Shown here: positions 2,317-50,071 of the stretch, one piece after another
Layout: each line of letters begins with the position of its first letter
Position numbering within the stretch: the stretch's first letter is position 1
Assembly (NCBI GenBank): GCA_035444565.1
Contig: DAOMOX010000004.1
Span: 12,000-75,999, forward strand
Origin: Candidatus Dojkabacteria bacterium
Lineage (GTDB): Bacteria; Patescibacteriota; Dojkabacteria; B142; OLB20
Direction: 5' to 3'
Length of the DNA: 64,000 bases
Position numbers and translations under genes: made by a program
Notes under the pieces: model-generated
The model's database searches: none
What the model saw: only the letters and a program-made list of their open reading frames with translations
Told to the model about the DNA's origin: nothing

Positions 2317-4488
2317 TCAAAACGTTGGGTATGGTTGGAAATTCTTATGTGTATAGAATTGATAATTAAAATCGGGCTTAGTTGTCTCGGGGCTAATTCC
2401 AGTTATATATAGATTGCCGTCGGTTCTGATTTCAATACCGTTTGGATATTCGAAGGGCGTTGGAGGATATTTAGACGAAGCAAGTTGGAGATACTCCCCT
2501 ACCCAAGGTCTGACAGAAGTTTGACCTGTCGCTCCATATCTCATCGGAGTATTATCATTATTAATGAGCATTCCAGCTACAACTATTTCAGGTGAATACC
2601 CTATGTAGAGTGTTTCTGTTTGATCTTCAGAAGTTCCTGTTTTACCAGCCATATCACGACCATCGAAAGAAAATCCAGGCCCACCTTTATTACCATTTAA
2701 TATGTCGTTAACTAAATAAACTCCTCTAGGATCAGCTACTTGTGTTGTTATAGGTTGATGTTCGTATAAAATTTCACCATTCCTATCAACTATTTTGCTA
2801 ATTACTTCATGTTGTGTGAATTTTCCATTATTTGCGAAAACTGCATAACCCTGCGCATGTTCAATTAATTTTAATTCTCCACCTCCTACTGCTAAAGATA
2901 ATCCATAACCATTCGGATTGTTCATTGTGGTGTAACCCCAGGTTTTCATTTGTTCTATCAAGCTTGTATAGCCAATTTTCTCAAGAAGAATTATCGCAGG
3001 AATGTTCCTCGATTGGACAAGCATATACCTATATGGATGTAGTCCAGAGAATTGCCCATCATAATTTTTCGGAGTGTACTTGCCAATTGTAATAGGAGCA
3101 TCATATACAAGTGTTTCTGGAGTCATTATCCCCCGCATAAATGCATTGTAATAAATCATAGGTTTGAGTGTAGAACCATATGCCTGAAGAGTATCAGGAA
3201 CATTTACTTGGGGTTCATACCTACAATTTAACCCTATTTGACATCCTTCTGGACTAGCCTTGCCAAAGTAGTCGTATGAACCAACCATAGCCAGTACATC
3301 ACCATTTTTAGGGTTTAATACAACCATTGCAGCATTGTCAGCACCAAACTGTTTTCCATATGTGGAGACTGCCTTTTTCACTTGTGATTCCGCTATTCTT
3401 TGATAATCCATGTCTAATGTTGTGTGAATTCTTAATCCTTCGGTCTCGATTTGTTCAAGAGTTAAGGGTTTCCCATCGTTGTAACCATTTTTCTGTAGTT
3501 GCTCTAATGCATAAAATACAAAATGAGGAGCATTTATTCGAAACGATGGATCTTGGTAAGCGATTTCTTCTTTCCGCGCTATTTCAATCATTTCTTTGGT
3601 AAAAAGTTCTGTATCTGGTCCATAAATTTCTAACAAATTATTATTTATGAAATCGAGATTTGATTCTATCTGATTTAATACATAATTCTTGCGTGATTCG
3701 AGTAATTCTTTCGAAATTTCTGGATTTGTTGACTTGGTGGGTGAAAGTATTGATGGATTTTGTGGAATTGAAGCAAGTACAGCCATTTCTGCGAGTGAAA
3801 GTTCTTCAGGTGCTTTTCCGAAATAGAACTTAGATGCTCTAGTTACTCCATAAATATTACTTCCGCTCGGTACAACCGTAAGATACATTTCTAATATCTC
3901 CTCTTTTGATCGTACTTGTTCGATTTTCAAGGCGAGTAACATTTCTTTGATTTTCCTTGCAATTGCAACTTCGTCCGTGAGCGCAGTTTTTCTGATTAGT
4001 TGTTGAGTGATTGTACTACCTCCACAAACGATAGTTCTTTCTTCTAAATATCGAAAACTGCATCTCGCGAGTGCTTCTAAATCAACTCCTTGATGTTCAA
4101 AAAATCTTAAATCTTCTGCAGCCAGATAAGTCCATATTATTTGTGGAGGAATAGTCTCGAGATCAACTGGGTCTCTATCTTCATTATCAAAAACTCTATA
4201 GAGTAGTTCTCCATTTCTATCGTAAATTTCGGTGGCGGTTTGCTTCCGTCCAAATGGTTTATCGGGACTTGGAAGGTCTTTTGAGACGTTCTGAAGATAT
4301 TTCAGTGATGCAATAAATGAAAAGATAGTTACTGATGAAATAATGACAAAAAGAAGTACCAATAATCTGCTTATTGTGTCCCTCTTGGTAATTTTTCGAT
4401 TTGTTTTAAAATTTTTGGGGGTGCGTTTTGATCTAACCTTTTCTTTTTTGCTTAAATTCTTAATTTTGATTGATTTCTTTTGAGTCAT
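2317..4488 (-). CDS. Class A penicillin-binding protein (PBP1A-type; glycosyltransferase GT51 + transpeptidase)
   Basis: N-terminal TM anchor. GT51 motifs EDLRFFEHQGVD and GGSTITQQL. Transpeptidase motifs STLKP (SxxK) and KTGT. Confidence 0.9.
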   Translation of the reverse strand: MTQKKSIKIKNLSKKEKVRSKRTPKNFKTNRKITKRDTISRLLVLLFVIISSVTIFSFIASLKYLQNVSKDLPSPDKPFGRKQTATEIYDRNGELLYRVFDNEDRDPVDLETIPPQIIWTYLAAEDLRFFEHQGVDLEALARCSFRYLEERTIVCGGSTITQQLIRKTALTDEVAIARKIKEMLLALKIEQVRSKEEILEMYLTVVPSGSNIYGVTRASKFYFGKAPEELSLAEMAVLASIPQNPSILSPTKSTNPEISKELLESRKNYVLNQIESNLDFINNNLLEIYGPDTELFTKEMIEIARKEEIAYQDPSFRINAPHFVFYALEQLQKNGYNDGKPLTLEQIETEGLRIHTTLDMDYQRIAESQVKKAVSTYGKQFGADNAAMVVLNPKNGDVLAMVGSYDYFGKASPEGCQIGLNCRYEPQVNVPDTLQAYGSTLKPMIYYNAFMRGIMTPETLVYDAPITIGKYTPKNYDGQFSGLHPYRYMLVQSRNIPAIILLEKIGYTSLIEQMKTWGYTTMNNPNGYGLSLAVGGGELKLIEHAQGYAVFANNGKFTQHEVISKIVDRNGEILYEHQPITTQVADPRGVYLVNDILNGNKGGPGFSFDGRDMAGKTGTSEDQTETLYIGYSPEIVVAGMLINNDNTPMRYGATGQTSVRPWVGEYLQLASSKYPPTPFEYPNGIEIRTDGNLYITGISPETTKPDFNYQFYTHKNFQPYPTF

Positions 4489-4704: not shown

Positions 4705-6135
4705 ATGAATTTTAGAAAATTACTAAAACAGGATTTTATTATTACTTTTGTAATATTAGTTTTACTAGGTATTGGGAGCTTAGTGATTTTTTCAACAACA
4801 TATAACACAGAAGGCGCAGATCTCTTAAATAAACAAATTATATTAATAACTATAGGTCTGGTAATCTACTTCGCTCTTATTTTAATCGATATCGATTGGT
4901 TTAAAGTTTTCAGTATCCAATTAATACTATATCTAATAATTATTGCGACTTTACTGTATGCAGTTTTATTTGGATCCACCATTGCTGGTACAAATCGGTG
5001 GATTGATCTCGGATTTTTTGCATTTCAGCCATCAGAGTATTCAAAAGTATTAATCATTATGTTTATTTCACTAATATTTAGTAGTGAAAATCTCCCTCTG
5101 AAAGAAAATTTAAAAGAAATACAAAGTAGATTTCAGAAAGAGTATGGTTTAAAAAATAATTTTAAAGAAACTCTCAAAAAAATAGCTAACGACCGAGAGT
5201 TTCGAGGACTATTCTATGTCGCATTATATGTATTCCCTATTGTCATATTGACTTTTATTCAACCATCACTCGGCAACACTATCATAATTATAGGTTTAAC
5301 ATTTTTCACATTATTTTTCTCAACAAAATATCAAACACAAATTCTGAAAATATTAATTTTAGGACTATTAACGTTTCTATTTATTAGAAATTTTATAAGC
5401 TTTGATACCGGAACAGCGTCGTTTTCATTTTCAACAAACATCAATAATTTATATTTTTTAATTATTACAGTTCTATTATTTTTACTTTTGGCATATTTTA
5501 TGAAAGTCAAATGGTGGGTAGTATTAGGTGTGGTTTTGACAACGACAATTTTCTTGTTTGGTTCAATCTTTGCTTGGAATCAACTATTAGGAAATTATCA
5601 AAGAGAACGTGTACTTACTTTTATCGAAGGTCCTGAAGCAGACCCGCTAGGGAGTGGTTACCAGATAATTCAATCTAAGATTGCAATTGGCTCTGGTCAA
5701 TTATTTGGAAGAGGCTTTTTACAAGGAACTCAAAGTAGTCTCCACATATTGACCCAGGCACATACGGATTTTGCCTTTGCTTCGATGAGTGAACAATTCG
5801 GATTTATTGGTGCGTTATTGTTATTATCAACATATCTAACACTATTATTTAGAATATTAAAGATTGCGAAAGAAACAAAAAGTGATTTTGGAAGAAATAT
5901 GTCTTTTGGAGTTGTTGGATTATTACTAATACATATTTTTATTAATATTGGTATGAATCTCGGTAAATTACCAGTTACAGGTATTCCACTCCCTTTGGTC
6001 AGTTATGGAGGTAGCTCAGTTCTTATGACTTTGATTGTCTTAGGATTAATACAATCTGTTCATGCGTCACGTCGTCCCGTTGACATGGCAGACAGTTTGA
6101 TGTTAACATCCTTAGCAGGGAATAAATCCGAGTAG
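4705..6135 (+). CDS. SEDS-family peptidoglycan polymerase (RodA/FtsW-like), divergent from the class A PBP
   Basis: Multi-TM. C-terminal SEDS signature GSGYQIIQSKIAIGSGQLFGRG…LPVTGIPLPLVSYGGSS. Carries a charged insertion of about 100 aa in the middle. Confidence 0.85.
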   Translation: MNFRKLLKQDFIITFVILVLLGIGSLVIFSTTYNTEGADLLNKQIILITIGLVIYFALILIDIDWFKVFSIQLILYLIIIATLLYAVLFGSTIAGTNRWIDLGFFAFQPSEYSKVLIIMFISLIFSSENLPLKENLKEIQSRFQKEYGLKNNFKETLKKIANDREFRGLFYVALYVFPIVILTFIQPSLGNTIIIIGLTFFTLFFSTKYQTQILKILILGLLTFLFIRNFISFDTGTASFSFSTNINNLYFLIITVLLFLLLAYFMKVKWWVVLGVVLTTTIFLFGSIFAWNQLLGNYQRERVLTFIEGPEADPLGSGYQIIQSKIAIGSGQLFGRGFLQGTQSSLHILTQAHTDFAFASMSEQFGFIGALLLLSTYLTLLFRILKIAKETKSDFGRNMSFGVVGLLLIHIFINIGMNLGKLPVTGIPLPLVSYGGSSVLMTLIVLGLIQSVHASRRPVDMADSLMLTSLAGNKSE

Positions 6136-11292: not shown

Positions 11293-11739
11293 ATTTTTCC
11301 AGTTATCTTCGTAATCTGAGATTTTTTTCAATCTTCTGATATGTCTTTCTTCTCCTGAGAAATCTGTGTTTAGCCAAGCAGTAATGATAGGGAAATCTTC
11401 GTCTTCTTCAAAAGTCATATCATCGAGGACCAAAATATTAGTGTCATCGTCCTCTCTAGCTTTTACTGCATGTTCTATGGATTCTGCGTATCCTGCACGT
11501 ACGCCCTTAACTTTGTTGCATGCTACACACACTCCGATACCTGATCCACATAAAATAATGCCTTTTGCATTTTCTTTTACAACTAACTCTCCGAGCATAA
11601 ACGCGTAATCAGGGTAATCATCATCTGGGTCATATTCTTTTGCCCCTATATCTATAAACTCGATATTGGACAAATCTAAGAAATGTTTTAGCTTTTCTTT
11701 TTCATCAAAACCTCTGTGGTCAGCAGCAATATATAGCAT
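11287..11739 (-). CDS. rpiB: Ribose-5-phosphate isomerase B (RpiB/LacAB family)
   Basis: [11 protein letters not shown]…[22 protein letters not shown] is typical RpiB. Confidence 0.85.
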
Positions 11740-36405: not shown

Positions 36406-36539
36406 TATTAAGTAAAACAGATTTGATTATATAGCGAAAAATTGAAAGAAGATAGTTATTCTATTTGTAGAAAATTAAATTACGTATCTTTGATTAATAT
36501 TTAATTTACGTTCATAATAGAAATAATAAATATTGTTAT

Positions 36540-37340
36540 ATGGCAATTTCTGTTTCTATACCTAATACACCTAAGACTAAAAAGGAGAATATTATTGCGA
36601 CTTATAATTTGCATAAATATTTCTATACAGGTGTTGGCGAAACCCAAGTTCTGCATGGAATAGATTTGGAAATTAAAAGAGGTGAATTTATCATCATATT
36701 TGGACCATCTGGCTCAGGTAAATCTACCCTTCTCCATTCAATGATTGGACTAGAAAGTCCTACCAAAGGTAGAGTTGAGTTATTTAATCAGGATCTTTAT
36801 GCTCAAAATGAAGACGAAAGATCAATGACTAGATTGGAGAAAATTGGAATTATGTACCAACAACCAATATGGGTAAAAGCAATGAATGTAGCTCATAATG
36901 TAGCCTTACCATTAAATTTGCTAGGTACTCCACATAGAGAAGCTATGAAAATTGCCGAGGAAAAATTGAAAAGCTATGCTATGGATAAGTGGGCTAAATA
37001 TAAACCAACTGAGTTATCCTCTGGACAACAGCAAAAGATTTCATTGATACGTGCTTTAATTACAGAGCCGGAGATACTAATCGCTGACGAGCCTACTGGT
37101 AATCTTGATATAGATTCGAGCAAGAGATTAGTTGAAGGTTTGAAAGAACTTAATATTATCGGTAGGACCGTGATAGTAGTCACACACGATTTACAATATC
37201 TATCCTACGCAGATAGAACTTTCTATATTAAAGATGGTAACCTAGCTGGAATTTATATGCAGGATGAGACAAAAGAACTGATAGACGATGTTCTAAACAA
37301 AGGTAAATCAATATTTAAATTAGAAAAAACTGCTAAATGA
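36540..37340 (+). CDS. ABC transporter ATP-binding protein (MacB/LolD/FtsE-like)
   Basis: Walker A GPSGSGKSTLLH, signature LSSGQQQKISLIRAL, Walker B ILIADEPTGNLD. Confidence 0.9.
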   Translation: MAISVSIPNTPKTKKENIIATYNLHKYFYTGVGETQVLHGIDLEIKRGEFIIIFGPSGSGKSTLLHSMIGLESPTKGRVELFNQDLYAQNEDERSMTRLEKIGIMYQQPIWVKAMNVAHNVALPLNLLGTPHREAMKIAEEKLKSYAMDKWAKYKPTELSSGQQQKISLIRALITEPEILIADEPTGNLDIDSSKRLVEGLKELNIIGRTVIVVTHDLQYLSYADRTFYIKDGNLAGIYMQDETKELIDDVLNKGKSIFKLEKTAK

Positions 37341-38863
37341 ATTTAGAAGAATTAAAATCAAGATTTGGTCCAATATTTGAAACGCTATTTAGCTCTGTCT
37401 TTATAGAGATTACTATCATCTTAATAGTGATTATGTTGGTAGTGATAAATATTCAGAGGTTTAGACGATATAGGATTAAAGTCTCTTTAATTGATCTACT
37501 CTACATTGCTGGTGTTAACCTAATGGTTCGTAGAACAAGAACAATAGTAACTATAGTGGGTATGTCGATAGGTATAGCTTCGATTGTATTTCTAGTTTCT
37601 ATCGGCTATGGGATGCAGGACTTGGTGATTTCAGAAGCAACCAGGCTGGAAGAGTTGAAACAAGTGCAAGTATCAACCCAAGCTGGAAGCAAATTAAGAT
37701 TGAACGATACGGTTTTAGCTGATTTAAAGAAGATCCCTAATGTCCAAAAGACTCTGCCGGTAGTTGCTATAGTCGGTGACATGTCTTACAAACAATCAAA
37801 TGCCGCTATTCCGGTTTATGGGGTGACAACAGATTATCTCAAAGAATCAGCAATCCAACCTGTTTATGGAGAACTCTTTGAAAGTAATGAGACTTATTAC
37901 GAAGTTAAACAAGCTGAGAATTTAACAGAAGTGAATGAAACAAAGAATACAGAAAGTGCAAACTTACTGGAAAATCCAGTAGAAGTTTCCGAAGGTGAGG
38001 AGTTTATCGAACTTGATACAGAAAATACAGATGGAGAGAAAATTGACGTTGATGAAATAAATTTGCCAAATACTGCTTTAAAAGAAATCGTTATGAATAG
38101 ATCCGCAATCGAGATTATTGGATTGCCTTTTGATGACGCTGTCGGAGAAAACGTAAGTCTTGCTTTTACTGTCACAAACCAACATCTCAATAGAGAAGGA
38201 ATAAAAGTTGTTTCATTACCAGAAAATTTCACTATTGTAGGAGTACTCTCTGATAACTCGGAACCAGCAATCTACACGCCTTTCTTTAATTTGAGAACAT
38301 TAGGAGTTGTGAATTTTACAGAAGTCCGAATAATCACCGATGATCAAAATAATGTGCAAAGAATTAGAGAACAAGTTGAAGCGCAAGGTTATCTCACTAC
38401 ATCCGTTCAGGATACAGTTGCAGAAATTGAACAATTGTTTAGTAGCGTGAGGATTGGGTTAGGACTAATTGGAGCATTTGGTTTAGCTATCGCTTCACTC
38501 GGAATGTTTAACACATTGACAGTTTCTCTTCTTGAGCGAACAAAAGAAATCGGTCTGATGAAGACTATAGGTATGAAATCTGCGGAAGTTCGTCTATTAT
38601 TCCTTATTGAGTCATTGTTAATGGGTTTCCTAGGAGGTGTGTCGGGCTTGATGTTGGGTTACTTAGGAGGGAAATTAATCAGTTTGATATTAACCTCATA
38701 TTCTATTAGTAAAGGTGGTAATGCTATAAGCGTGAGCAGTATTCCTTTCACATTCGTCTTCTTGGTAATTGCATTATCTATCATGGTGGGATATTTGACA
38801 GGATTATTCCCCGCTAGAAGAGCTACAAAAATTTCTGCACTAAATGCTCTTCGTTACGAATAA
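37337..38863 (+). CDS. ABC transporter permease of the MacB/FtsX (type VII) family with large extracytoplasmic domain
   Basis: TM1 is followed by a ~300-aa extracytoplasmic domain with an acidic insertion. C-terminal FtsX-like 3-TM bundle LERTKEIGLMKTIGMKSAEVRLLFLIESLLMGFLGG. Start overlaps the ATPase stop. Confidence 0.85.
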   Translation: MNLEELKSRFGPIFETLFSSVFIEITIILIVIMLVVINIQRFRRYRIKVSLIDLLYIAGVNLMVRRTRTIVTIVGMSIGIASIVFLVSIGYGMQDLVISEATRLEELKQVQVSTQAGSKLRLNDTVLADLKKIPNVQKTLPVVAIVGDMSYKQSNAAIPVYGVTTDYLKESAIQPVYGELFESNETYYEVKQAENLTEVNETKNTESANLLENPVEVSEGEEFIELDTENTDGEKIDVDEINLPNTALKEIVMNRSAIEIIGLPFDDAVGENVSLAFTVTNQHLNREGIKVVSLPENFTIVGVLSDNSEPAIYTPFFNLRTLGVVNFTEVRIITDDQNNVQRIREQVEAQGYLTTSVQDTVAEIEQLFSSVRIGLGLIGAFGLAIASLGMFNTLTVSLLERTKEIGLMKTIGMKSAEVRLLFLIESLLMGFLGGVSGLMLGYLGGKLISLILTSYSISKGGNAISVSSIPFTFVFLVIALSIMVGYLTGLFPARRATKISALNALRYE

Positions 38864-38955
38864 ACTTCTACGAAAAAAGTTCATTTTCCTTCGAAAGAAG
38901 GAATCTCTCCCGAATGTATTCTCAAGTAAATTCCATAAAAATCATATAATAGAGA

Positions 38956-38983
38956 TCCCTGATCAAGTCAGGGAAATTTTTAG
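38956..38983 (+). terminator. Hairpin plus T-run between the ABC permease and the giant gene
   Basis: TCCCTGA-TCAAG-TCAGGGA followed by AATTTTTAG. It lies ~10 nt upstream of the annotated start of the giant ORF. Confidence 0.4.
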
Positions 38984-38993
38984 TTGAATTGAT

Positions 38994-41900
38994 TTGAAAT
39001 GTTTCTCAAAAAAAGTTAAATTATATAAACCAATTTCACTAATAATGCGCGTTTCGCGTCCTAATAAAAGCTTGCAGAGAATGCATCGAGACTATTCTCG
39101 TATATTTCGTATACGGAAGAATTTCATACGCAAAAAACTTAAACAAATCTCCAAATTTTTGTTCTTCAAGAAGATAACATTAGCTAGGTGGCAGTTGAAT
39201 ACTTTTACTGTCATGATGCTATCTCTTGGATTTGTCCTTGGCACCTATGCGATGGTTATGGAATTAGTCCCGATTCTGAGGGCTCTCGATGAAACTAGTT
39301 ATACTTTAGTTCAAGGAGGAGATGGTGAATTAACTTCTGGTAGTGGAACTGACGTTGTGATTTCAGCTTCCGCAGTGTCTTTGGGAAAAGACGATAACTG
39401 GTTTGATATGGGCTGGAACCTGAAGAGACAGTTGACTATCAAAAATCTATCAGCAATCACACTTCCTTCAAATACTCCTATTCAATTAACATTAAACACA
39501 AAGGAATTATTTGATGCTTCTAATATTCAGAATGACTGTGATGATCTTAGAGTTATTTATTCTACTGGGGTGGGCAACCATACAGAACTAGCTAGAAGCT
39601 ACTATAAAGCAAGTGGTGCCACGGATTGTTCTGATTCTACTGCGACTGTAGTCACATTCCCAATTCAAGCGGAGCTGACTGCTGGTGCAACAAGCAGCAA
39701 TTACTATTTATACTATAAAAATTCAGGTGCGACTAACCCTGGTTTTGGTGATAATGGCTATAACATAGGCGACGCTGAGGCAACCATGGTCTGTCCGTTT
39801 AATGGTTCGACGACTTGTGTGGATGGTGAGACACCAAGCACTGCAACTGGAGCTTTAAGATTTTCGGGAGGGAGTGCGATTGAAACAGATGGTGCTTGGG
39901 ATAATCCTGATAAAATCACTGGACCGACATTGCCTTCAGTTTCGCAATACACAATAGAGTTCTTTGTCAAAAATAATGGTAACTTTAATTCGTATGCAGG
40001 AATTTACGGAGGGTGGGGTGGTTTTGACGCAAATGATATAAATACTGGAGGCAGTGTAAATGGAATGTTGTTAAATCCTGGTTCGCTAGGTCTGATAGGA
40101 TTAACAGTAAATCACTCTAGTGGTCAATGGGTTCATTTAGCATTCGTTTATGATGGAGTAAATTATTCTGTTTATGAGAATGGTAATAGGATTTACTATA
40201 CACCAAAGACCTTCAGTATTTCAGCCCAAGGGTTCTATCTGGGTGCTAGGAATAGCTACCGAGGATTCAAGGGTCTATACGATGAATTTAGAATTTCCAA
40301 TATTGCAAGGTATTCAGGGAGTTTTACAACCCCAACATCTAACTTCACTGCCGATGCAAATACTTTAGTTTTGTATCATTTTGATGAAAATGGAGATGAT
40401 TTACGAAATACAGGTAAAGCTTATGATTCGAGTGGAAATGGATATCATGGAACAATCTCAGGAGCGAAATACACTTCAAACACCCTCGGTATTTATCAGG
40501 GTACAGCTACTCCTATAAAGACACAAAATATTTTTACTCACGAAGGGGTTCTGTTGGAAGAAGGGGCTACCAATCTAATTACAAATCCGAGTTTTGAAAA
40601 TACAACTTACAACCTAAATTGGGGTAATAGTTTCTTCAATTACAACAACACCTTGGATACCTTTACTGCTTCTATAACTAAAAGAAATAGTGCTGGTCCA
40701 TTTACGTCTGGTGTGATACTACAAGATGATTACGGAGATACCAGTAGTTTGACTTCTGATCAGTTGTCTTTTTCACACGGAACAACTTTGTGGGGAGATT
40801 TTTCAAATAGTAGTGATGATGACCAAGGGACATTAGTTTTCTGGTGGACTCCTGAATATAGTTCTTCCACGATGAATACTGGAAGTACTATGTTTATGGA
40901 AATGCGTTCTTCAAGTAATTTTACATATAACTGGGTAGATGATAAATTTTACCTTGGGGGTTCTCCAATTGGCACTTATGATTTTTCCGCAGGACAGACA
41001 TATTTAGTCGTCTTACGTTGGGATAAAGATAATAATATAATTGCAAATACTGCAAATCTTTCAATAGACAATGTAAGCATAGGAGATGCATCATCATCTG
41101 GACATGTTTGGGAAGATGATTGGGGCTCAACTAATTTATGGGCATTTGATGGTGTAGTCGAAGGTATGACAGTTTACCGAAGACCACTTTTCGATGGATT
41201 GTATGGTATTGACATGGGAACCGGAGATGAAATTGAACAGATTTATAATGCTGGTGCAGGTAAAGATCCTACTTTGATAACAGGAAGTTGGGACGTAGTT
41301 TTTGCAATGCCAACTAACTCTGATAACGGTGTTATTACAACTGGGACAGGGAATGCATGGAGTCATCCACATCAATTAAACCTCCTATATACAAATTCAA
41401 CTAATACGGGTGGTTATATGTTAAATGGTGATTATAGTATTGATAATTGGACTGGTATTGCTAGTCCTCAATCAATCAGTGCATTAAGCACTGTTGAAAA
41501 AATTTATTCTGGTGGTTATAAGATAGAATCAAATTTAATAAATCAAGGTATTTCAAGAAGCTTTGCAGCATCAAGCGGAGGCGATTATGTAATTAGGGCG
41601 ATTGGAAATTCAGATGGAACCTGTACTCCAGTTGTTAAAATTTTACGAGCTGATGGAATTACGGAGATTACAAGTAAGGTGGGAACATCTCTATCAACAA
41701 AAAGCTCGCCAGAAGTATATATCTTCACTTGGGAATCTCCAGCGCTTGAAGATAATATTATCCAACTTCTGAATACCAACAGTAGTGGTATTTGTTATTG
41801 GCATCAAGCTGAGGTTTATAATAACTTGTTTAATAATCCTTCTTTAGAATCTGGAGCAGGCGACCCATGGATACCTACCAGTTGGTGGAATGCAAACATT

Positions 41901-44900
41901 CCTGTCGGGGGGACTCAGCAAGAAACAACTATAGTGCACAGCGGTCAATCATCAATTAAACACAACCTAAACTCACTAAACACTTCAATAGGAACAAATC
42001 TAAATACAAATCCTCCTACAGGAAGTTACTTTGTAGTCGGAGGACACTTTTACGGTGTACCAAATGGTAACGGTAAAAATCAACTTAGTGCCCATAATTA
42101 TTCAGATTTACAACATCAGCCATTACAAAGGCAGTTATTGGGTTTAAAGATAGCTGAATGGCACCATACAGTAGGTGTATATCGGAAGGCACAGGGAAGT
42201 AACACAATTTGGGGTGTAGGTTTAATTGAGGGAACAGGAGTTCATCCAGTATATTCTGACGATCTGTATGCTATTTCTTTGAGTGATGTCTCCCTCAATG
42301 TGAGTCCTGCGAGTGAAGTTAATAGTACAGAAACGACAGGTATAAGGGTTGATGGAAGAGATGTGCTAAGTCAACCCATAACGGGCTTATCAGCTGATAA
42401 AGGACTTGTAAAGTTTAAGTTCACTCCGAGACATAGCTTTAGTATTGCAGATAAGTTCGGAGTAGCAAATCCAGTTATTGTTACACTTACATATGATGGA
42501 AATAGCTATATTAAAATTCAAAAGCAAGACCCAACGACGCTTCGAATGATTGTAAAATTTAATGATAGCCAATCTCTAAATCTTGATTGGAATAACGCTA
42601 TTTTAAATGCTGGCACATCTTATGACTTTGAGATACGTTATTATTCAGGTGGAACTATTAGTTTATCGGTTAATGGAGAAGTAAAAGCGATAGCTTCTGG
42701 TGCCACAAATTTCGCTAACGTTCCAAATACAGCGTATTTTGGTTCTGATGGAGGTGCGAATGTCTATGACTCAACTATTAATAGTTTTGTTTCTTTAACA
42801 CCTACAGAAAATCTAACACAATCAAATCTAAAATTTGGGACAAGGAGTCTTAAACTAGTGAATAGTGGAGCTTCACCGGACGAATATGTAACGGACTTTA
42901 CCTCTACGACGAATGCAGCACATACAGTTAGTGCATATATTTTCAATGCGACCTCTGGGGATATTGGAGAAGCAGTAAGCACCTCTGTCGCACAAATAAT
43001 TTTAGATGGAGAATTACAAACGACTCAGTACGAGGATGCTGGAGGAGGTTGGTGGAGGTTGTTAAGTAGGATAAATAAAATTTATGGAGATTATCCAACT
43101 ACTAATATGGATTCTGACCAAGGCCTTTTCACAGGTACATCAAACAGGCTTCTTTCACAAAGCATTAAACCAACCCAAAACCTTCAAACAGTTCAGGTTG
43201 TAATTCCTTTGAAAAAGGTAGGTGCTGGAACTCCTACAACTACCCATTATCAAGTTCGTATCAATACAGATATTGGTGGAGCTCCATCCGGGACTCTTCC
43301 TCCCGGTGGACATTCTTCTTGTATAGCAGTAACTACAAGTACCTCTTATCAAAATATAAGTTTTACTATACAAACAAGTCTCGCAGCTAATACAACATAT
43401 CATTTGGTATTAACCCCATACGTAAATAGTAACTGTAGCACTTTGCAAACAACCGCTGATCCTACAAACTACATAGCATGGGGATATGATGGATCAACTT
43501 CAAGTTACCTACCTGGTGAGAGATCGATATACGATGGAAGCACTTGGACCCAACAAACCTCAAAAGATCATATTTTCACACTGTACACCGGGAGGACTAT
43601 GGTTGTTGGTTTACGTGTTATGCCAGGTAAAAGTGTTTATATGGATGGGGTGCAGGTTGTAAGTTCTACTTCTCTTTCTAACCCATTGCCTCATACTTAC
43701 ACAGATGGTAGTCTGGGTGCTGGTTATGGATGGACCGGGGAAGAACACAACTCTACAAGTACTCGAACACGAGACTCTCTATACTATCCCGTTCAAGACT
43801 CTTTTGGTCCTACTTCGGGAACAGTGAGCTTTTGGTTTAAACCATACAGGCCATTTGGAAGCGGATATGATCAGTCTGCTCAACACTGGATATATTCTTC
43901 ACATACAACTCAGGGTTCACAATCCTCGGTAAGTGCTTATGTTGATAGTGGGAGAAATTTAAACTTTAGGTTGGCAAATGATGCAAACCAAGTTTTTGAT
44001 ATAAGTCAGGGACCCTGGAGTGCAGGAATATTTCAAGTACAAAAATGGCACAATATGGTACTTGTTTGGGATGGGACAAAGTTCAGCGCATATATAAATA
44101 ATGTATTGTATGGAGAAATTAACTATACAGGTACACTGACAATTAATAACGCCAATATGGGCATAGGGTCTACTTCAGGATGGGCTCCAGCTTTTGGAAC
44201 AATCTCGGATTTCAGAATCTATAACAACTCATTAGATGTAAATGAAGTAGGATACCTCTATCAATCCGGCCTCTCTACGCACACCCAAAGTGATATCGAT
44301 GATAAGAAATACAAAACTACTGCCGATTATGAATCTGGAGTACTTGATCTCGGGAATGCTGGACAATGGGGGAACTCACCAAATTTGTTGATTACTGAAG
44401 CTTTAAACGGAAATACCATCAATTACCAAACTCGGAGTTCAGAGGATAACCTCGTATGGTCTGATTATGCTGCCGTTAGCGGTGACACACCTAATCTAAC
44501 GATTTCAAGCCCTCCAAAAAGATATCTACAGGTAAAGGCAACTTTGAATTCACCAAACCAAAACACGACTCCTGAGTTTAATGGTGCACAAATCAATTAC
44601 GTTCAAGATGCAATACCACCAGAGGTTAACGCTACAGAAACAACTATGAAAAGAACAGTCTCTGGGGATACTATAATAGAAAATAACTTTTCAAATTCTC
44701 AAGCTCCGTATTTCAGCTGGGTTGAGGGTGGAGATGATGCCGATGGGTCTGGACTTCGTGGATATTGTTTATATTTAGGTCCAGACATTGCGGGAAATCC
44801 AGCAAATGATAAAGGACTTTTGGGTTCAAGTCCTGGTTCAACTGCAAATACGACGTGTCCTTTTGTGGTAACTACAAATTCCATTGATTTTGCAAATACA

Positions 44901-47213
44901 AATCTAAGAGGAAACACATGGTTACAATCAACTACTGATCCATATTACATAGTTATCAGGGCTGTTGATAATACTGGAAATGTTTACGACCTAGAGCCAG
45001 AAATATTCGGCTTCAAGTTTGATAACACTCCTCCTACTAATCCTAGCGGTTTATTTGCCCCTGCCAGTTACCAGAGATCTTTCGATAGTTTTGTAATATC
45101 ATGGCCAGCCGATGGGACAAATATGGCTCAAGACACACATTCATTAGTAAAAGGTTTCCAATACAAACTTGGTACAAACGGTACTTGGTATGGAGGTGGA
45201 CACACCGGAGATCAAGATTGTAATGACGTTTTGACAACAAATACCTACGCGCTTGATGCCAACTTCGATAACCTACCGTCTGGAGAAACTCCGTTTTATC
45301 TTAGGACTCTTGACTATGCGTGTAATACATCCGCTTCGGCAATTTCGGCAATCTTAAAATACAACTCGACTGCACCGTCAGCTCCGCGAGATCTGTCGGT
45401 TACTCCAGTAACTAACGATAAAAATGAGTTCTCTTTTACTTGGTTGACCCCAGAAATATACCAGGGAGCGGAATCCAACTTGTCATATTGTTACACAGTT
45501 AATACTCTTCCTACGTCTGGTACTTGTATTTTTACAAGCAGTAAATCATTAAATCCTGATGCATTTGCAACACAACCTGGAGAAAATACATTCTATGTAG
45601 TAAGTCGTGATGAGGCCTCAAATATTAACTATGGGGATTATGCATCAATAAAATTCTACGCCAACACATCAGCCCCTGGTGTTCCTAGAAATTTAGATGT
45701 TGCAGATATTTCTGTTAAAACAACTAAAAACTGGAGACTGACCGTATCGTGGGACGAACCAGAAGACTTAGGTGCTGGAGTTGCAAAATACTTTATCTAT
45801 AGATCATTTGCTGAAAATGCTAATTGTAGTGAAAACTTCTCTTTATTTGGAAAAGTTGGAGAAACTGCTGGAGGCTCTTATGTTGACACAAATCTTCAAC
45901 AAAAAGATCATTTCTATTGTGTGAGAGCATGCGATTCGACAAATAACTGTTCTGCAGTGTCTTCGACGGGTAGTAACTTCCCTGATGGTAAATTTACTAG
46001 TCCTGCGATACTTGAATCAGCCCCTGTTGTAAGTAGTGTTTCAACAAGAAGTGCGAGGATTAGCTGGATAACAGATCGAGATTCAGACTCAAGAATTTCA
46101 TATGGATTGGCAAGCAATGATTATTTCAAAGAAGAAGTTGGAAATTCAGAGCAACGAATTGATCATGATTTGATACTTACAAATCTAGAGCCTGGAACAA
46201 CATACTATTTCCAAGCTAAATGGACAGATGAAGATGGAAACTTAGGATTATCCGACGAATATACATTTAAAACTGCACCACCCCCAAGTGTGAAGGATGT
46301 TGTGGTCAGTAGTGTTGGCATTAGTACTGCAGTTATCAACTTCACGACGACTGGTTCATCAAAGGTAAACTTCCTCTATGGTACTTCCGTAAGTTTTGGA
46401 TCAAGTAAAGAAATCGCAACTAGTCCTCTTGAGTCAAGATACACTACCCTACTTGATGGTTTATCAGAAGGAAGTAAGTATTATTTCAGAGTTGATACTG
46501 AAGATGACGAAGGCTATGTTTATGAAGGTACTGTTCTTGATTTCAATACATTGCCACAACCAAAATTATCGAATGTGCGAATTCAACAAGTGAAAAATGC
46601 TGCTCAACCAACAGTCTTAGTCTCCTGGGAATCAAACACAGAAGTCACCTCTGTGGTTAGTTTATTCCCTGAGGGTAAAGCAGATTTGATTAGAGAGGAA
46701 GTTAATTTAGATTTAAAAGGTGGCGAACATCAGATGATTATTCGTGGGCTGTTACCGAATACTGTGTATGAGTTATTAGTTAAGGGGTCTGATAAATTAG
46801 GAAATCAAGCAACATCAACTGCACAGAGAATAACAACTGCAACTGATACTAGACCTCCTGCAATTTCAAACGTACAGATTGAAGCTGGTAAAGGTAATGT
46901 TACTGATAGTTCTCAATTCATAGTTACATGGACAACAGACGAGCCCACCACTTCACAAGTTGAATATGGAGAAGGTACAGGTAGTAGCTATCCACAGAGA
47001 TCACAATTGGATAGCAATTTTACACTTGATCACACCATCGTAATTTCTGGTTTAGCACCTGGAAAGGTTTACCATTTGAGAGCAGTTTCAACTGACGATG
47101 CAGAGAACACAACATACTCTCTAGACTATGTCGCAATTACTCCAAAAGAGTCTAATAGTGCAATAGAGCTTGTGATTAGTAGCTTGTCTAGGGTGTTCTC
47201 CTTCCTGAGATAA
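38994..47213 (+). CDS. Giant (2739 aa) TM-anchored cell-surface protein: DUF2341-like, multiple LamG/ConA-like jellyrolls, CBM4/9-like modules, FN3 domains and four C-terminal PAP-N/FN3-like repeats
   Basis: Basic N-terminus then TM ([19 protein letters not shown]). DUF2341-like aa ~130-255 (…[12 protein letters not shown]…[11 protein letters not shown]). LamG-like TIEFFVKNN…[19 protein letters not shown] and [12 protein letters not shown]…[19 protein letters not shown]…[11 protein letters not shown]-like [21 protein letters not shown]3 [14 protein letters not shown]…FSFTWL and [11 protein letters not shown]…[10 protein letters not shown]. Four ~95-aa repeats [17 protein letters not shown]…[28 protein letters not shown]…[24 protein letters not shown]…[26 protein letters not shown]…[16 protein letters not shown]. 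Confidence 0.8.
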
Positions 47214-47216
47214 ATT

Positions 47217-48506
47217 TCATCGACTGCCTATAACCGGAATCTCCTCCCACCTTGTAGTATATCTCGGTGAACGAAGTGCCTGTTCTTTGATTGGATTCAA
47301 GAAAACCATTTGATTCGCATACTTAACTGTGCCTTTTCCCCAGATAGAGTTGAGTTTATCAAACGATTTCATAAGGATTCTCTGTTTTATATCTTCTTGA
47401 GGATTTGGGGTAGTGAAAATGTTTTGTTGGTATTCGCCTTTATTGTAGAAATTCTCCAAAAACACCCCTGCCCTTTTGTATTTGTATCCTGAGCGGAAAA
47501 TCTGCCTCAGGCCATTGAGCGCATTCTTCGTCAAGAGTGGTGTGTAATCGGTAGGTGTTTCGAGTTTTATCAAGTATGAATTAGAGTATCGTCCTTCGGG
47601 GGTAAATCTATCTGTTGTAAGGAAAACCCAAATCCTGGATGTTACTGAACCCTGTGCTCTTAGGCTTCTGGAGGCACTATCGGTGAAGCGTGCTACCGCT
47701 TGAGCGACTTGGTTGTATTCGGTGTAAGCTTTCTTGAACGTACGGCTACAGAGTATGCCTTTTTTCGAGCTACGATGTGGGTTGATTGGGTAACATCGAA
47801 TACTATGGAGTTCAAGCCAGGTACGTTCGAGCATAACTCCATATTCTTGTCGAAGTAGATGTCTATCAGCTTTGAGGAGGCTTGGGATGTCTGCAATATC
47901 AAAAATCTTTAATCTTCTAGCAATACGTCCTCCTATTCCCCAAATGTCATCAATGTCGAGATGTTTTAAATATTCAATATGTCTATAGTCGGTAATGTCA
48001 TTTATCTGATAAACCCCATCATTTTCGATGAATTTCTTGGCGATTTTGTTAGCAAGTTTGGCTAAGGTTTTGGTGTTTGCTAGTCCGATTGAGATTGGAA
48101 TACCTGTCCAGCGATAAATTGTCTCTTTCATTTCTATTGAGTTCCGAAGCATTCTCTGTGGTGACGTTATAGGAATTCGTAGAAATGCCTCATCAATAGA
48201 ATATATCTCAATTTCCTGACAAAACTCATGTAGTGAACGAAATACTCTCTCTGACATATCCTGATAAAGTGTAAAGTTTGCGGAGCGCACAGCGACGTTG
48301 TTCTCGATAAATCGATCTTTCCATTCAAATAGAGGAGCTCCCATGGGGACTCCCATGGCTTTCAATTCGTTTGATCTGGCGATGACACATCCGTCATTAT
48401 TAGAGAGAACCGCTGTCGGGCGATTACGGAGTGTCGGATCAAAGACTCTCTCGCAAGAAACATAGAAATTATTGCAGTCGACGATACCATAAATATCGGA
48501 AGACAT
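47217..48506 (-). CDS. umuC: Y-family translesion DNA polymerase, UmuC-like (Pol V catalytic subunit)
   Basis: IYGIVDCNNFYVSCERVFDPTLRNRPTAVLSNNDGCVIARSNELKAMGVPMG aligns closely with E. coli UmuC (MFALCDVNAFYASCETVF…VVVLSNNDGCVIARN). Confidence 0.85.
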   Translation of the reverse strand: MSSDIYGIVDCNNFYVSCERVFDPTLRNRPTAVLSNNDGCVIARSNELKAMGVPMGAPLFEWKDRFIENNVAVRSANFTLYQDMSERVFRSLHEFCQEIEIYSIDEAFLRIPITSPQRMLRNSIEMKETIYRWTGIPISIGLANTKTLAKLANKIAKKFIENDGVYQINDITDYRHIEYLKHLDIDDIWGIGGRIARRLKIFDIADIPSLLKADRHLLRQEYGVMLERTWLELHSIRCYPINPHRSSKKGILCSRTFKKAYTEYNQVAQAVARFTDSASRSLRAQGSVTSRIWVFLTTDRFTPEGRYSNSYLIKLETPTDYTPLLTKNALNGLRQIFRSGYKYKRAGVFLENFYNKGEYQQNIFTTPNPQEDIKQRILMKSFDKLNSIWGKGTVKYANQMVFLNPIKEQALRSPRYTTRWEEIPVIGSR

Positions 48507-48976
48507 CAGAGTTCATGAATATTGTAGGCAACTACACCCCATATCTCGAAGTCGTTCTCCGGAGTAATACGATAAAGTGTGGATCTGGTATTCCAGGGCG
48601 TCAAATATGTGATGTGTTTAGATATTAATATCTTTTTGATTAATAATTCACCATCTAGGCTCACGACAACGATTGATTTATCTGTAATGGGTAATGAACG
48701 ATCCACTACAAGTAAATCTCCTTTGTGGATTCCCCATTTTCTCAAGTCATTATCCCCTGCTTTCATAAAAAATGTACTGGAAGGCTTTTTAATAAGATAT
48801 GACTGAATATCGAGTTTTAGGTCAGATTCGTTTCGAATAGGAGTCGAAAAAGCTACTGTAGAAAGTTCGAGATCCTTTCGAGATTCATTTTTCTGTTCTT
48901 CGTACAATCTAGTCGAACGGAAGTCCTCCTGATAGTCTAAGAATGTTGTTTCGGGTGCGTAGATATTATTCTGCAT
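48506..48976 (-). CDS. umuD: UmuD-like S24-fold protein with substituted nucleophile (GDND instead of GDSM) and no Ala/Cys-Gly cleavage site
   Basis: KAGDNDLRKWGIHKGDLLVVDRS…VVVSLDGELLIKKI aligns with UmuD [21 protein letters not shown]…AAVDGEFTVKKL. The Lys is conserved and the Ser is Asn. Start shares 48506 with the umuC stop and the other end overlaps the lexA stop. Confidence 0.7.
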   Translation of the reverse strand: MQNNIYAPETTFLDYQEDFRSTRLYEEQKNESRKDLELSTVAFSTPIRNESDLKLDIQSYLIKKPSSTFFMKAGDNDLRKWGIHKGDLLVVDRSLPITDKSIVVVSLDGELLIKKILISKHITYLTPWNTRSTLYRITPENDFEIWGVVAYNIHEL

Positions 48977-49628
48977 GTTTGGTTGAGAAATTAGGGTTAT
49001 CTAAAACTGCTACGACTTTGCCGTAGATATCTGTATCTCCTAGAGAAGATGCATCTAGGTAGAATGGTTTGTGTCGTGTGTTGGTGGACTCTGGGTAAAG
49101 TACCACGATGTTTCGGTCTTTTTTGATAGTTTTGATAGTTGCGCAGTTATCGATAATTGCTAAAACAACATCGCCATTTTTGATATCAACGTTTTTTGCT
49201 ATGACTGCATACTTGCCATCCTCGAGTGTTCCTCCATCAACTTCACGCATGTTCATAGAATCTCCTTTTATCATAAGGGCGAAGACGTCCTTGGTGACTG
49301 GAAGGAGACTGCGATTAATACGTAAATAGCCAAGTTGTTGTTCCTGGGCTATCACCATAGGTGCTCCAGCATTTGCATAGCCGAGGATATTTACATCTAT
49401 AAACATCTGTCCGGACTGTGTTTCCCGAAGAGTTATACCTCGGGACGACGAAGATCGATTTATCAATCCTTTTTTCTCAAGTGCTTGTAGATGTTTAACG
49501 ACTGCTCTGCGAGTGATACCAAGTGCTCGCTCCATCTCTGTAAGTGTGGGTGCTTGGCCAGTTTCGATAATGAAGGACTTTATAAGGGATAGTATTTCGT
49601 TTTGTCTTGTGGTTATGGTATGTGTCAT
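48966..49628 (-). CDS. lexA: LexA repressor (wHTH + S24 autopeptidase, intact)
   Basis: Likely start is the second Met (MTHTITTRQNEILSLI…). The ORF-track start at 49685 would translate the upstream repeat region. wHTH LTEMERALGITRRAVVKHLQALEKKGLI. Cleavage site ANAGAP, GDSM and IKTIKK are conserved. Confidence 0.8.
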   Translation of the reverse strand: MTHTITTRQNEILSLIKSFIIETGQAPTLTEMERALGITRRAVVKHLQALEKKGLINRSSSSRGITLRETQSGQMFIDVNILGYANAGAPMVIAQEQQLGYLRINRSLLPVTKDVFALMIKGDSMNMREVDGGTLEDGKYAVIAKNVDIKNGDVVLAIIDNCATIKTIKKDRNIVVLYPESTNTRHKPFYLDASSLGDTDIYGKVVAVLDNPNFSTKHAE

Positions 49629-49629
49629 A

Positions 49630-49673
49630 TAGGTATACTTAATATACTTAAAATGGTATACAAGGTATACAAG
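49630..49673. promoter_or_regulatory. Repeat-rich candidate LexA operator region at the lexA start: TAGGTATACTT, (TATACTTAA)x2, (GTATACAAG)x2
   Basis: Three GGTATAC cores plus tandem direct repeats directly abut the lexA ATG. The 11-mer TAGGTATACTT recurs upstream of dnaE. Confidence 0.35.
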
Positions 49674-49741
49674 AATGTCAAGCAATTAATATAATTTTAT
49701 GAACTTTAATATTGGAAGATTGAAGTACTAAGTTATCTAAG

Positions 49742-50071
49742 TTAGATATATTTCTCACCGAGTTTCTTGTGATTCTTGCCCCAAGTAGACATTGAAACTA
49801 AAACAGGTCTTAGAGTTTTCCCGTAAGGAGTGATTGAATATTCAACCTTTGGTGGGATCACGGGAAATATCTTTCGCTTTATGAGTCCATCTTTTTCAAG
49901 TTCACGTAACTGCGATGTAAGCATTTTTTGTGTAATACCGGTGATTTCTTTCTGTAATTCACTAAATCTTAGAGTTTTTTGATCAAGATGCCACAGAAGA
50001 AGTGGTTTCCACTTTCCTCCTATTACTTTCAAAGTAATATTTACCGGGTTATCACTGTTGCAGACTCTCAT
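49742..50071 (-). CDS. HxlR-family (MarR-like wHTH) transcriptional regulator
   Basis: TLKVIGGKWKPLLLWHL…LRFSELQKEITGITQKMLTSQLRELEKDGLIKRKIFPVIPPKVEYSITPYG is the HxlR/DUF24 signature. Start trimmed to the internal Met (ORF track extends to 50167 and would overlap the divergent neighbour). Confidence 0.75.
   Translation of the reverse strand: MRVCNSDNPVNITLKVIGGKWKPLLLWHLDQKTLRFSELQKEITGITQKMLTSQLRELEKDGLIKRKIFPVIPPKVEYSITPYGKTLRPVLVSMSTWGKNHKKLGEKYI

Follow-up and report, generated by a model that had tools for sequence, protein, structure and literature searches.

A MacB-type ABC transporter pair beside a giant Fn3-stalk protein in Candidatus Dojkabacteria, one copy of a module widespread in Patescibacteria

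The analyzed stretch of DNA comprises 64,000 nucleotides (nt) of a Candidatus Dojkabacteria genome (assembly GCA_035444565.1, contig DAOMOX010000004.1, positions 12,000 to 75,999) and is referred to as the window in the following. Three of its genes encode an ATP-binding cassette (ABC) ATPase, a type VII permease and a giant secreted protein that ends in a stalk of fibronectin type III (Fn3)-like domains (Table 1). Comparison with related genomes revealed that this locus is one copy, rearranged and enlarged, of a module that is widespread in Patescibacteria. An earlier note on this DNA had proposed from adjacency that the ABC pair and the giant form a dedicated module, and this proposal has gained support, as the linkage holds in both search directions and is kept through a permuted gene order and changed flanks.

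Table 1. Features of the locus, in positions of the window (aa, amino acids; ORF, open reading frame)
Feature	Position	Strand	Remarks
Promoter-like TTGATT-17-CATAAT upstream of the ATPase gene	36490..36518	+	consensus scan only
ABC ATPase gene, 266 aa	36540..37340	+	PF00005; catalytic motifs intact
Type VII (MacB/FtsX-fold) permease gene, 508 aa	37337..38863	+	MacB_PCD and FtsX
Permease, extra N-terminal hydrophobic helix ("TM0"), aa 20-44, before elbow helix and first transmembrane helix (TM1)	37394..37468	+	hydropathy 3.0; modelled helix
Permease, extracytoplasmic domain of MacB size, aa 109-356	37661..38404	+	between TM1 and TM2
Permease, acidic loop, aa 188-235, predicted disordered	37898..38041	+	predicted local distance difference test (pLDDT) <50
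Permease-giant spacer with two hairpins and a promoter-like site	38864..39044	+	fold z-score -2.0
Giant secreted protein	38994..47213	+	mechanical ORF of 2739 aa from TTG 38994; probable start ATG 39045 (2722 aa)
Basic N-region, hydrophobic core aa 71-95, probable signal-peptidase site ILRA|LDETS	39045..39284	+	single hydrophobic segment; conserved motif
Fast-evolving head	39285..43064	+	holds DUF2341-like domain and Laminin_G_3 domain 1; ~900 aa without family match
Diverged DUF2341-like domain, aa 116-260	39339..39773	+	pairwise alignment to the P0125 domain
Laminin_G_3 (concanavalin-like) domain 1	39927..40310	+	Pfam 2.1e-09
Laminin_G_3 domain 2	43791..44249	+	Pfam 2.7e-15
Stalk, ~eight Ig/Fn3-like domains	44571..47159	+	aa ~1860-2739 conserved; last four domains match Pur_ac_phosph_N/fn3
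C-terminal tail, 25 aa, amphipathic helix aa 2723-2734	47136..47210	+	family consensus

Conserved linkage of the ABC pair and the big protein

The permease belongs to a family that is very large in Patescibacteria. A scan anchored on the permease with an alignment of 20 members, run on a single genome for each GTDB species, found more than 569 loci; 80 of them were kept together with 10-kb flanks. In 58 of the 63 loci that extend 1.5 kb or more beyond the ATPase gene on its upstream side, a homologue of the giant ends no more than 300 nt upstream on the same strand; these homologues measure approximately 560-2,400 aa, with most of them above 1,000. Two further loci carry a homologue about 3 kb upstream and two a divergent one, bringing the total to 62/63 within 10 kb. 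Two tandem big proteins were found in six loci, and ATPase and permease are fused in 15/79. Except for a retroelement cassette, none of the other neighbours surveyed (kinase, sortase, hydrolase, membrane-fusion protein (MFP)) was conserved in more than about 15% of the loci.

For the reverse scan, an alignment of the conserved part of the giant was searched against metagenomes, giving 80 loci, of which the 68 with at least 1.2 kb downstream were counted. The ATPase gene follows on the same strand within 400 nt in 59/68, within 600 nt in four more and at 2 kb in one (64/68 altogether); one of the remaining loci continues with a second big protein, and three show nothing in the 1.8-3.3 kb available. 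Three long contigs found by exact protein all encode big protein, ATPase and permease with 3-nt gaps or overlaps (3/3). The adjacency is far beyond chance, since it recurs in well over a hundred independent loci, and the question raised by the earlier note, whether the ABC pair travels with the giant, is answered in the affirmative by both counts.

The usual order is big protein, ATPase, permease, and genes arranged in this way overlap or have gaps of 3-20 nt. The window has the ABC genes first, as do the relatives whose permeases are 97% identical. A relative with a 75%-identical permease encodes a 2762-aa orthologue of the giant in the usual order, with an 18-nt gap, amid unrelated flanking genes that were looked for in the window and not found there. 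As this relative combines the usual order with other flanks, the linkage has survived both permutation and a change of context; the arrangement of the window, with the ABC genes in front, is a derived, permuted one. The nearest species representative (isolate DTUPAT2, locus L007) holds a second system in the same metagenome-assembled genome (L033, contig JAJTYI010000004.1; 327-4589, 4588-8868, 8909-11302), consisting of two tandem Fn3-stalk proteins of ~1420 aa and a fused ATPase::permease, the permease part being 37% identical to that of the window. Two diverged ABC pairs in one genome, each with big proteins, favour cognate pairs.

A neighbourhood without direct functional interaction finds some footing in the window itself. 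The permease stop lies 130 nt before the TTG at 38994 and 181 nt before the first ATG (39045), which is the start chosen by gene callers in the 97% relatives and kept in L007, and a terminator-like hairpin lies in between; furthermore, surface-protein genes are common in these genomes. The spacer hairpins were located at 38886-38903 and 38956-38974 (terminator-like, with a T-run after it), the latter followed by a promoter-like TTGAAA-17-TAAATT at 38994-39022. The earlier note had described the three genes as co-directional with tiny gaps: the three ORFs do lie on one strand at the coordinates it gave, but only ATPase and permease are tightly packed, sharing 4 nt in an ATGA overlap. In L007, the spacer measures only 68 nt (L007 11528-11595) and has neither hairpin. 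A segment of ~110 nt with both hairpins (window 38866-38975) is missing there, and a terminator scan of L007 gave a sole terminator-like match (11637-11650), which falls within coding sequence. The earlier note had named a strong separating terminator as an argument against the link; this strain has a terminator-like hairpin there, in the segment missing from L007. Because the nearest representative has no such hairpins, the terminator-like element is strain-specific, and the ~110-nt segment could be a small element inserted there or a terminator particular to this strain. Two-way synteny in more than 120 loci from many lineages, maintained through permutation and change of context, and the overlapping frames in the usual order make mere neighbourhood barely credible.

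The promoter-like site upstream of the ATPase gene sits within a 134-nt divergent intergenic region; promoter-like sites, this one included, were no more frequent than in shuffled sequence and constitute weak evidence. On the other side of the locus, an SOS-type cassette on the minus strand (47217-49685) is convergent with the giant gene at a 3-nt gap. It encodes a Y-family polymerase (IMS, IMS_C, DUF4113), a UmuD-like S24 peptidase and LexA (LexA_DNA_bind and S24). Within positions 38001-50000, the G+C content amounts to 0.37-0.40 over the giant and its 3' neighbours, compared to 0.29-0.36 in most other parts of the window, which could reflect a Gly/Ser/Thr-rich protein composition or a different history.

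Constant stalk and variable head of the giant protein

Conservation of the giant across the phylum is confined to its last ~880 aa (~1860-2739), which show 35-55% identity to more than 70 syntenic homologues, and the matches always extend to the final residue. An exhaustive HMMER search (E<=1e-30) with this stalk gave a family of 1514 representatives of 50%-identity clusters. Among the best 150 of these 1514, the module stands at or near the extreme C-terminus in almost all full-length proteins, which range from ~900 to 6321 aa. By this predicted C-terminal module and the adjoining MacB-type pair, the giant of the window is a member of what we call, for want of a name, the patescibacterial Fn3-stalk family. 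Larger members include P0351 (6321 aa), P0252 (4418 aa) and P0244 (4042 aa); in some of the larger members, ~20 separate stretches match the stalk query, so that their stalks or heads may contain many additional Fn3 repeats.

An AlphaFold2 model of the stalk (36 homologues, pLDDT 88) consists of approximately eight beta-sandwich domains arranged like beads, followed by a short helix (aa 2723-2734). The fold search retrieved generic Fn3/Ig arrays only (e.g. titin and cytokine receptors), with no enzyme and no functional lead, and a sequence search of the stalk against PDB gave spurious matches only. Invariant Trp, Tyr and Pro residues together with three Cys pairs suggest that the rod is extracellular and stabilized by disulfide bonds. 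The tail follows the consensus TITPKAT-NAL-LVI-NL---FGFL(GG..) in more than 70 relatives; its helix is amphipathic and too polar for a transmembrane helix.

At the other end, the giant starts with a long basic stretch followed by one hydrophobic core (aa 71-95). In ~60 family members, such a core is followed by (I/V/L)FA|(A/T/S), AxA|, VYA| or a similar motif, which reads ILRA|LDETS or RLMA|LDETS in the window and its close relatives. Since a small-x-small motif conserved after the core is the pattern of signal peptidase I, the segment is probably cleaved off as a Sec signal peptide and not kept as a permanent anchor. The signal anchor proposed in the earlier note is thus present as a hydrophobic segment, but probably does not stay on the protein. 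If cleavage is right, the mature giant has no membrane anchor of its own, and the tail is the only conserved terminal feature that could anchor it.

Between these termini lies the head, enlarged to ~1,700 aa in the window genome. Pfam found two domains of Laminin_G_3 in the giant, a family that the earlier note had named. Its second proposal, DUF2341, gave no direct Pfam match even at E<=1; however, aa 116-260 align with the domain of a relative (P0125; 31% identity, E 3e-13) that occupies the same position and scores 1.5e-31 on PF10102, so that a diverged DUF2341 is a fair description of what the alignment indicates. No Pfam family matched aa 440-1600 at E<=1. A "CBM-like" reading of the NPSFE motifs in the giant is no more than an impression.

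The head evolves much faster than its surroundings. Compared to L007/L004, the first ~1357 aa of the giant are 51% identical and the last ~1200 aa ~80%, whereas the permeases reach 97%; the flanking DNA is 85-90% identical, and no blastn match to L007/L004 was obtained for window positions 39839-44298. In distant relatives the head is not conserved. This divergence points to strong diversifying selection or to replacement by recombination. A metagenome locus (L102 6514-13290) encodes a typical family member and then a second, much larger one, the head of which resembles the window head over aa 55-1365 (34-41% identity); enlarged heads of the window type therefore occur in other lineages.

Related modules are moreover accompanied by diversity-generating retroelements, which we detected in 13 loci (L071, L083, L069, L072, L050, L077, L080, L079, L036, L063, L024, L064 and L076; L080 and L077 share one contig). 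Close to the big-protein gene, and mostly directly upstream of it, lie a reverse transcriptase (PF00078) and a small ORF that, judged by its sequence, appears to resemble the four-helix-bundle accessory protein. Each of the 13 loci contains a template/variable repeat pair with mismatches almost exclusively at template adenines (16/16 in L071, 16/17 in L069, 14/15 in L072). Examples of such pairs are 2391-2506 vs 5352-5467 (L071), 2896-3014 vs 5470-5588 (L083), 1897-2021 vs 5174-5298 (L069) and 2163-2278 vs 5478-5593 (L072). The variable repeat lies clearly inside the head in five loci (L071, L083, L077, L069, L072), ~360-460 aa into the ORF as delimited from stop to stop, and at the 5' edge of the ORF in L050, L079 and L036. 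Four loci (L063, L024, L064, L076) have the reverse transcriptase on the opposite strand, and their repeat pairs fall outside the delimited big-protein ORF or at its 5' end. FGE-sulfatase, a C-type-lectin-like fold usual among retroelement targets, gave a Pfam match in the variable region of 3/4 heads scanned. In the window, no reverse transcriptase or template repeat was found.

Heads are thus interchangeable, being of the DUF2341/LamG type, of the lectin fold or much larger, while stalk and tail remain constant. The hypervariability of the head (51% identity vs 97% for the permease) and the retroelements of related modules, the variable repeat of which falls in the head where it could be placed, make an adhesin-like role more likely.

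The ABC ATPase and its permease

The ATPase matches PF00005 (1.1e-29) and has an intact Walker A, LSSGQ signature, Walker B (ADEPT) and H-loop. Its best NCBIfam models are LolD, FtsE, DarD, DevA, YbbA and the MacB nucleotide-binding domain, all scoring far under the curated cut-offs (LolD 183 bits vs 308, FtsE 173 bits vs 265); its earlier description as an FtsE/LolD-like ATPase agrees with these matches. Pfam assigns FtsX (PF02687, 7.1e-18) and MacB_PCD (PF12704, 5.1e-16) to the permease. Hydropathy and model agree on a C-terminal FtsX-type helical bundle and a large extracytoplasmic domain between TM1 and TM2. On the MacB, ADOP, LolC/E and FtsX models of NCBIfam, the permease reaches 23-79 bits against cut-offs of 225-966 (FtsX 34-46 bits vs 225-255, LolCE 63 bits vs 362), and the DevC model is absent from its matches. 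A grouping with LolC/E or a DevC-type clade, which the earlier note had considered as evidence against the link, was hence not seen.

The AlphaFold2 model of the permease (20 homologues, pLDDT 74) comprises, in this order, the helix of aa 20-44, an elbow helix, TM1, a mixed alpha/beta domain (aa 109-356) and three long helices. Foldseek searches of this model against PDB returned MacB (5gko, 1.1e-19; the best full-length match), LolE (9rld, 1.6e-19), pneumococcal Spr0695 (5xu1, 4.7e-18) and B. subtilis YtrF (9o9x, 1.5e-15), with LolC also among the matches and FtsX ranking only 49th. The isolated periplasmic domains of MacB, LolE and YknZ match the extracytoplasmic domain as well, and by sequence YtrF is the closest solved relative. 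Based on these structural matches and the failure of the FtsX and LolC/E models, the ABC pair is type VII of the MacB kind and does not belong to FtsEX, LolCDE or a DevC-type clade.

Pfam, hydropathy and AlphaFold2 concur with the earlier picture of an FtsX/MacB permease with a large extracytoplasmic domain, an extra N-terminal transmembrane segment and an acidic insertion. In the alignment, the acidic loop marks the position at which most relatives carry an insert of ~150 aa; an SH3b-like identity of this insert, considered for its W-x-x-VR ... LGY motif, was dropped, as the insert gave no Pfam match. In the fused ATPase::permease relatives examined (L033 8909-11302, L021 8909-11269, L068 9047-11317, L022 8768-11338, L014 8816-11380), "TM0" is kept between ATPase and TM1 as one such segment or two. 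With a single "TM0" in a fusion, the standard topology is only possible if this segment re-enters the membrane or runs within its plane.

These results bear on two possible functions of the pair. It could be the patescibacterial equivalent of FtsEX, with the big protein as its regulated wall-acting partner. The FtsE and FtsX models do appear among the NCBIfam matches, and patescibacterial genome papers annotate "FtsEX" by similarity (PMC11809585). Yet both scores remain under their cut-offs, FtsX ranks low structurally, and neither Pfam, model nor fold search revealed a coiled coil or a LytM, CHAP, NlpC or amidase domain in the big protein. A hypervariable head is also ill-suited to a housekeeping role in division, and we therefore judge control of wall remodelling to be very improbable.

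Operons such as yknX-yknY-yknZ and spr0693-0695 consist of an extracytoplasmic protein, an ATPase and a permease. The usual order of the module mirrors this arrangement, the structural matches include Spr0695 as well as the YknZ domain, and JGI labels relatives as "antimicrobial peptide transport system permease". The pair might accordingly export a small molecule or peptide as an efflux pump of the MacAB/YknXYZ type, the big protein replacing the membrane-fusion adaptor as conduit or scaffold. However, the JGI labels are automatic, no HlyD/MFP-like domain was found in the big protein or the conserved neighbours, and Fn3 beads with a hypervariable or retroelement-diversified head would make no sense as a conduit, leaving efflux quite improbable.

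A possible surface fibre and its relation to known systems

Type VII ABC systems do their work on the outside of the membrane, and it is the partner that determines their function; known partners are EnvC/PcsB, LolA, MacA-TolC, TesA and BceS (PMC12646458). As the Fn3-stalk protein is the invariant neighbour of the ABC pair, we consider it highly probable that it is the partner or client of this pair. A new partner class for type VII ABC mechanotransmission is the best reading of the locus.

How the two would work together can be sketched as follows. The big protein would be exported by Sec and its signal peptide removed. Its C-terminal helix and last Fn3 domains would then be gripped by the extracytoplasmic domain of the permease dimer or by a groove in the outer leaflet, a contact between permease and tail that we infer. 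The rod, roughly estimated at ~30 nm, would carry the lectin-like head outward through the wall, where it may bind an external ligand, most plausibly glycans on the surface of a partner or host cell. The ATPase cycle would be transmitted via the permease as in FtsEX, LolCDE and MacB, so that the fibre is held, re-oriented or released. This whole arrangement, with the tail at the membrane in the permease, the rod across the envelope, the head outermost and the ATPase holding, moving or releasing the fibre, is put forward tentatively, as a reading that falls somewhat short of being probable. Going further, an ATP-powered fibre organelle can be imagined, with the ABC dimer as socket and motor, a rigid, tail-docked Fn3 stalk of fixed length and an exchangeable, fast-evolving head that a retroelement rewrites in some lineages. 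Nucleotide cycling would push or tilt such a fibre or let it go, so that host or prey cells are seized and released under energy control; we regard this version as doubtful.

Several observations weigh against the proposed arrangement. Permease and giant are separated in this strain by a terminator-like hairpin and a promoter-like site, and the ABC pair of L029 (Dojkabacteria PAT1, JAMQHH010000001.1; 35% identity) lacks an Fn3-stalk homologue within 10 kb in both directions, with a class I tRNA synthetase as the sole large ORF in the vicinity. Only its motif suggests that the signal peptide is cleaved; with ~25 aa the hydrophobic core is long, close relatives conserve it well, and a permanent N-terminal anchor, which is conceivable, would invert the geometry. 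The tail helix was modelled at low confidence (~50), and among 56 pairs the length of the tail showed no co-variation with that of the extracytoplasmic insert of the permease (rho -0.02).

The main rival is extraction or deployment in the manner of LolCDE or YbbAP, in which the ABC pair would spend ATP on extracting a segment held in the outer leaflet and would then pass the protein on to the wall or surface layer, or let it go. E. coli PBP5 is held in the membrane by a C-terminal amphipathic helix, and the big protein could likewise be held by its tail, which is amphipathic and not transmembrane, or by an uncleaved N-terminal segment; the ABC pair would then be a catalytic sorter and not a permanent anchor. 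The permease model matches LolC/E as well as MacB, the N-terminal segment, including its conserved motif, might just as well serve as a handle for recognition, and a gene order of substrate first and machine second is compatible with such a role. In addition, type VII systems extract hydrophobic groups from the outer leaflet (PMC12646458). A sorter would nevertheless be expected to serve many clients, yet nearly each big protein has its own adjoining ABC, and the genome with two systems keeps two diverged pairs. No conserved receptor, chaperone or wall-anchoring gene was found among the neighbours either. On balance, we hold extraction and hand-off to be unlikely. Because pairing is one-to-one, including the two diverged pairs in one genome, a stoichiometric complex of permease and fibre is favoured over a general sorter.

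A life attached to other cells is assumed for most Patescibacteria, and to our knowledge almost nothing is known about attachment outside Saccharibacteria. The module is a strong candidate for the cell-attachment machinery of Patescibacteria. Hundreds of species have it, its proteins make up no fewer than 1,500 clusters, and a single small genome may carry it twice. It couples a fast-diversifying lectin-like head to an ATP-driven membrane machine, which provides a concrete gene set for tomograms, proteomes and co-cultures. Retroelement-driven diversification of proteins in these bacteria is thereby connected with a defined membrane apparatus. The type VII ABC transporters would gain a new kind of partner, as the role of these transporters is partner-defined (PMC12646458); if the ATP-powered fibre were true, it would represent their fifth functional class and the first with an adhesin partner.

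In databases, the big proteins are only named "fibronectin type III domain-containing", "DUF2341 domain-containing" or "hypothetical", and the permeases of relatives are automatically named antimicrobial-peptide or FtsX-like permeases. Given these automatic names and the assignment of "FtsEX" by similarity, members of the module may be read under "antimicrobial-peptide permease" or "FtsEX". Giant DUF2341 proteins in Patescibacteria have been noted, but without the ABC link (PMC11809585). In the literature searched, no description of the trio of ABC pair and Fn3-stalk protein was found, an absence within that literature and not a proof, nor did the papers found describe a retroelement-diversified head on a conserved Fn3 stalk with an ABC pair. 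Other papers list giant Fn3/concanavalin surface proteins, or CPR (candidate phyla radiation) retroelements, in general terms.

Comparing the module to known systems, FtsEX with EnvC, PcsB, CwlO or RipC belongs to the same ABC fold class, and in these systems, too, probably no substrate is moved across the membrane. As in FtsEX, a helical element is proposed to keep a secreted partner on the extracytoplasmic domain, and ATP-dependent changes of conformation to drive it. In contrast to FtsEX, the permease of the window has an extracytoplasmic domain of MacB size and an extra N-terminal helix, and the pair fails the FtsX/FtsE models; the partner is a rod of approximately eight Fn3 domains with a variable lectin-like head instead of a coiled-coil hydrolase or activator, and the genes are almost always adjacent.

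LolCDE-LolA and YbbAP-TesA are close structural matches, and a hydrophobic or amphipathic handle of the client could be acted on here as well. The partnership of YbbAP and TesA is supported, among other things, by their co-location in genomes (PMC12646458), as is the one proposed here. In contrast to these systems, no LolA- or TesA-like protein was found here, the client measures 900 to more than 6000 aa and is encoded beside each ABC, and ATPase and permease of the window fail the LolD and LolC/LolE models. The organisms with this module are monoderm.

With MacAB-TolC and the Gram-positive pumps YknXYZ and Spr0693-0695, the module shares the best full-length structural match (MacB 5gko) and an extracytoplasmic protein that precedes ATPase and permease, whereas no membrane-fusion protein fold and no outer-membrane channel were found here. 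The fusion of ATPase and permease known from MacB also occurs in the 15/79 related loci mentioned above, while both are separate in the window.

The operons of type I giant adhesins (LapA/LapBCE, SiiE, MpIBP) encode an HlyB-type exporter, an MFP and TolC, and their adhesins have RTX repeats and no N-terminal Sec signal. Both they and the module place a giant repetitive adhesin, or here a putative one, with a conserved C-terminal element beside a dedicated ABC. Here, however, the ABC is of the MacB type and the N-terminus of the Sec type, and neither MFP, TolC nor RTX was found by Pfam or in the neighbour survey.

Finally, the retroelement variable proteins Mtd and TvpA have C-type-lectin folds. 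In contrast to these, the window contains no reverse transcriptase or template repeat, and its head is built from LamG and DUF2341-like domains, whereas the heads in related loci (clearest in L071, L069, L072, L083 and L077) carry an adenine-mismatched variable repeat, as Mtd and TvpA do.

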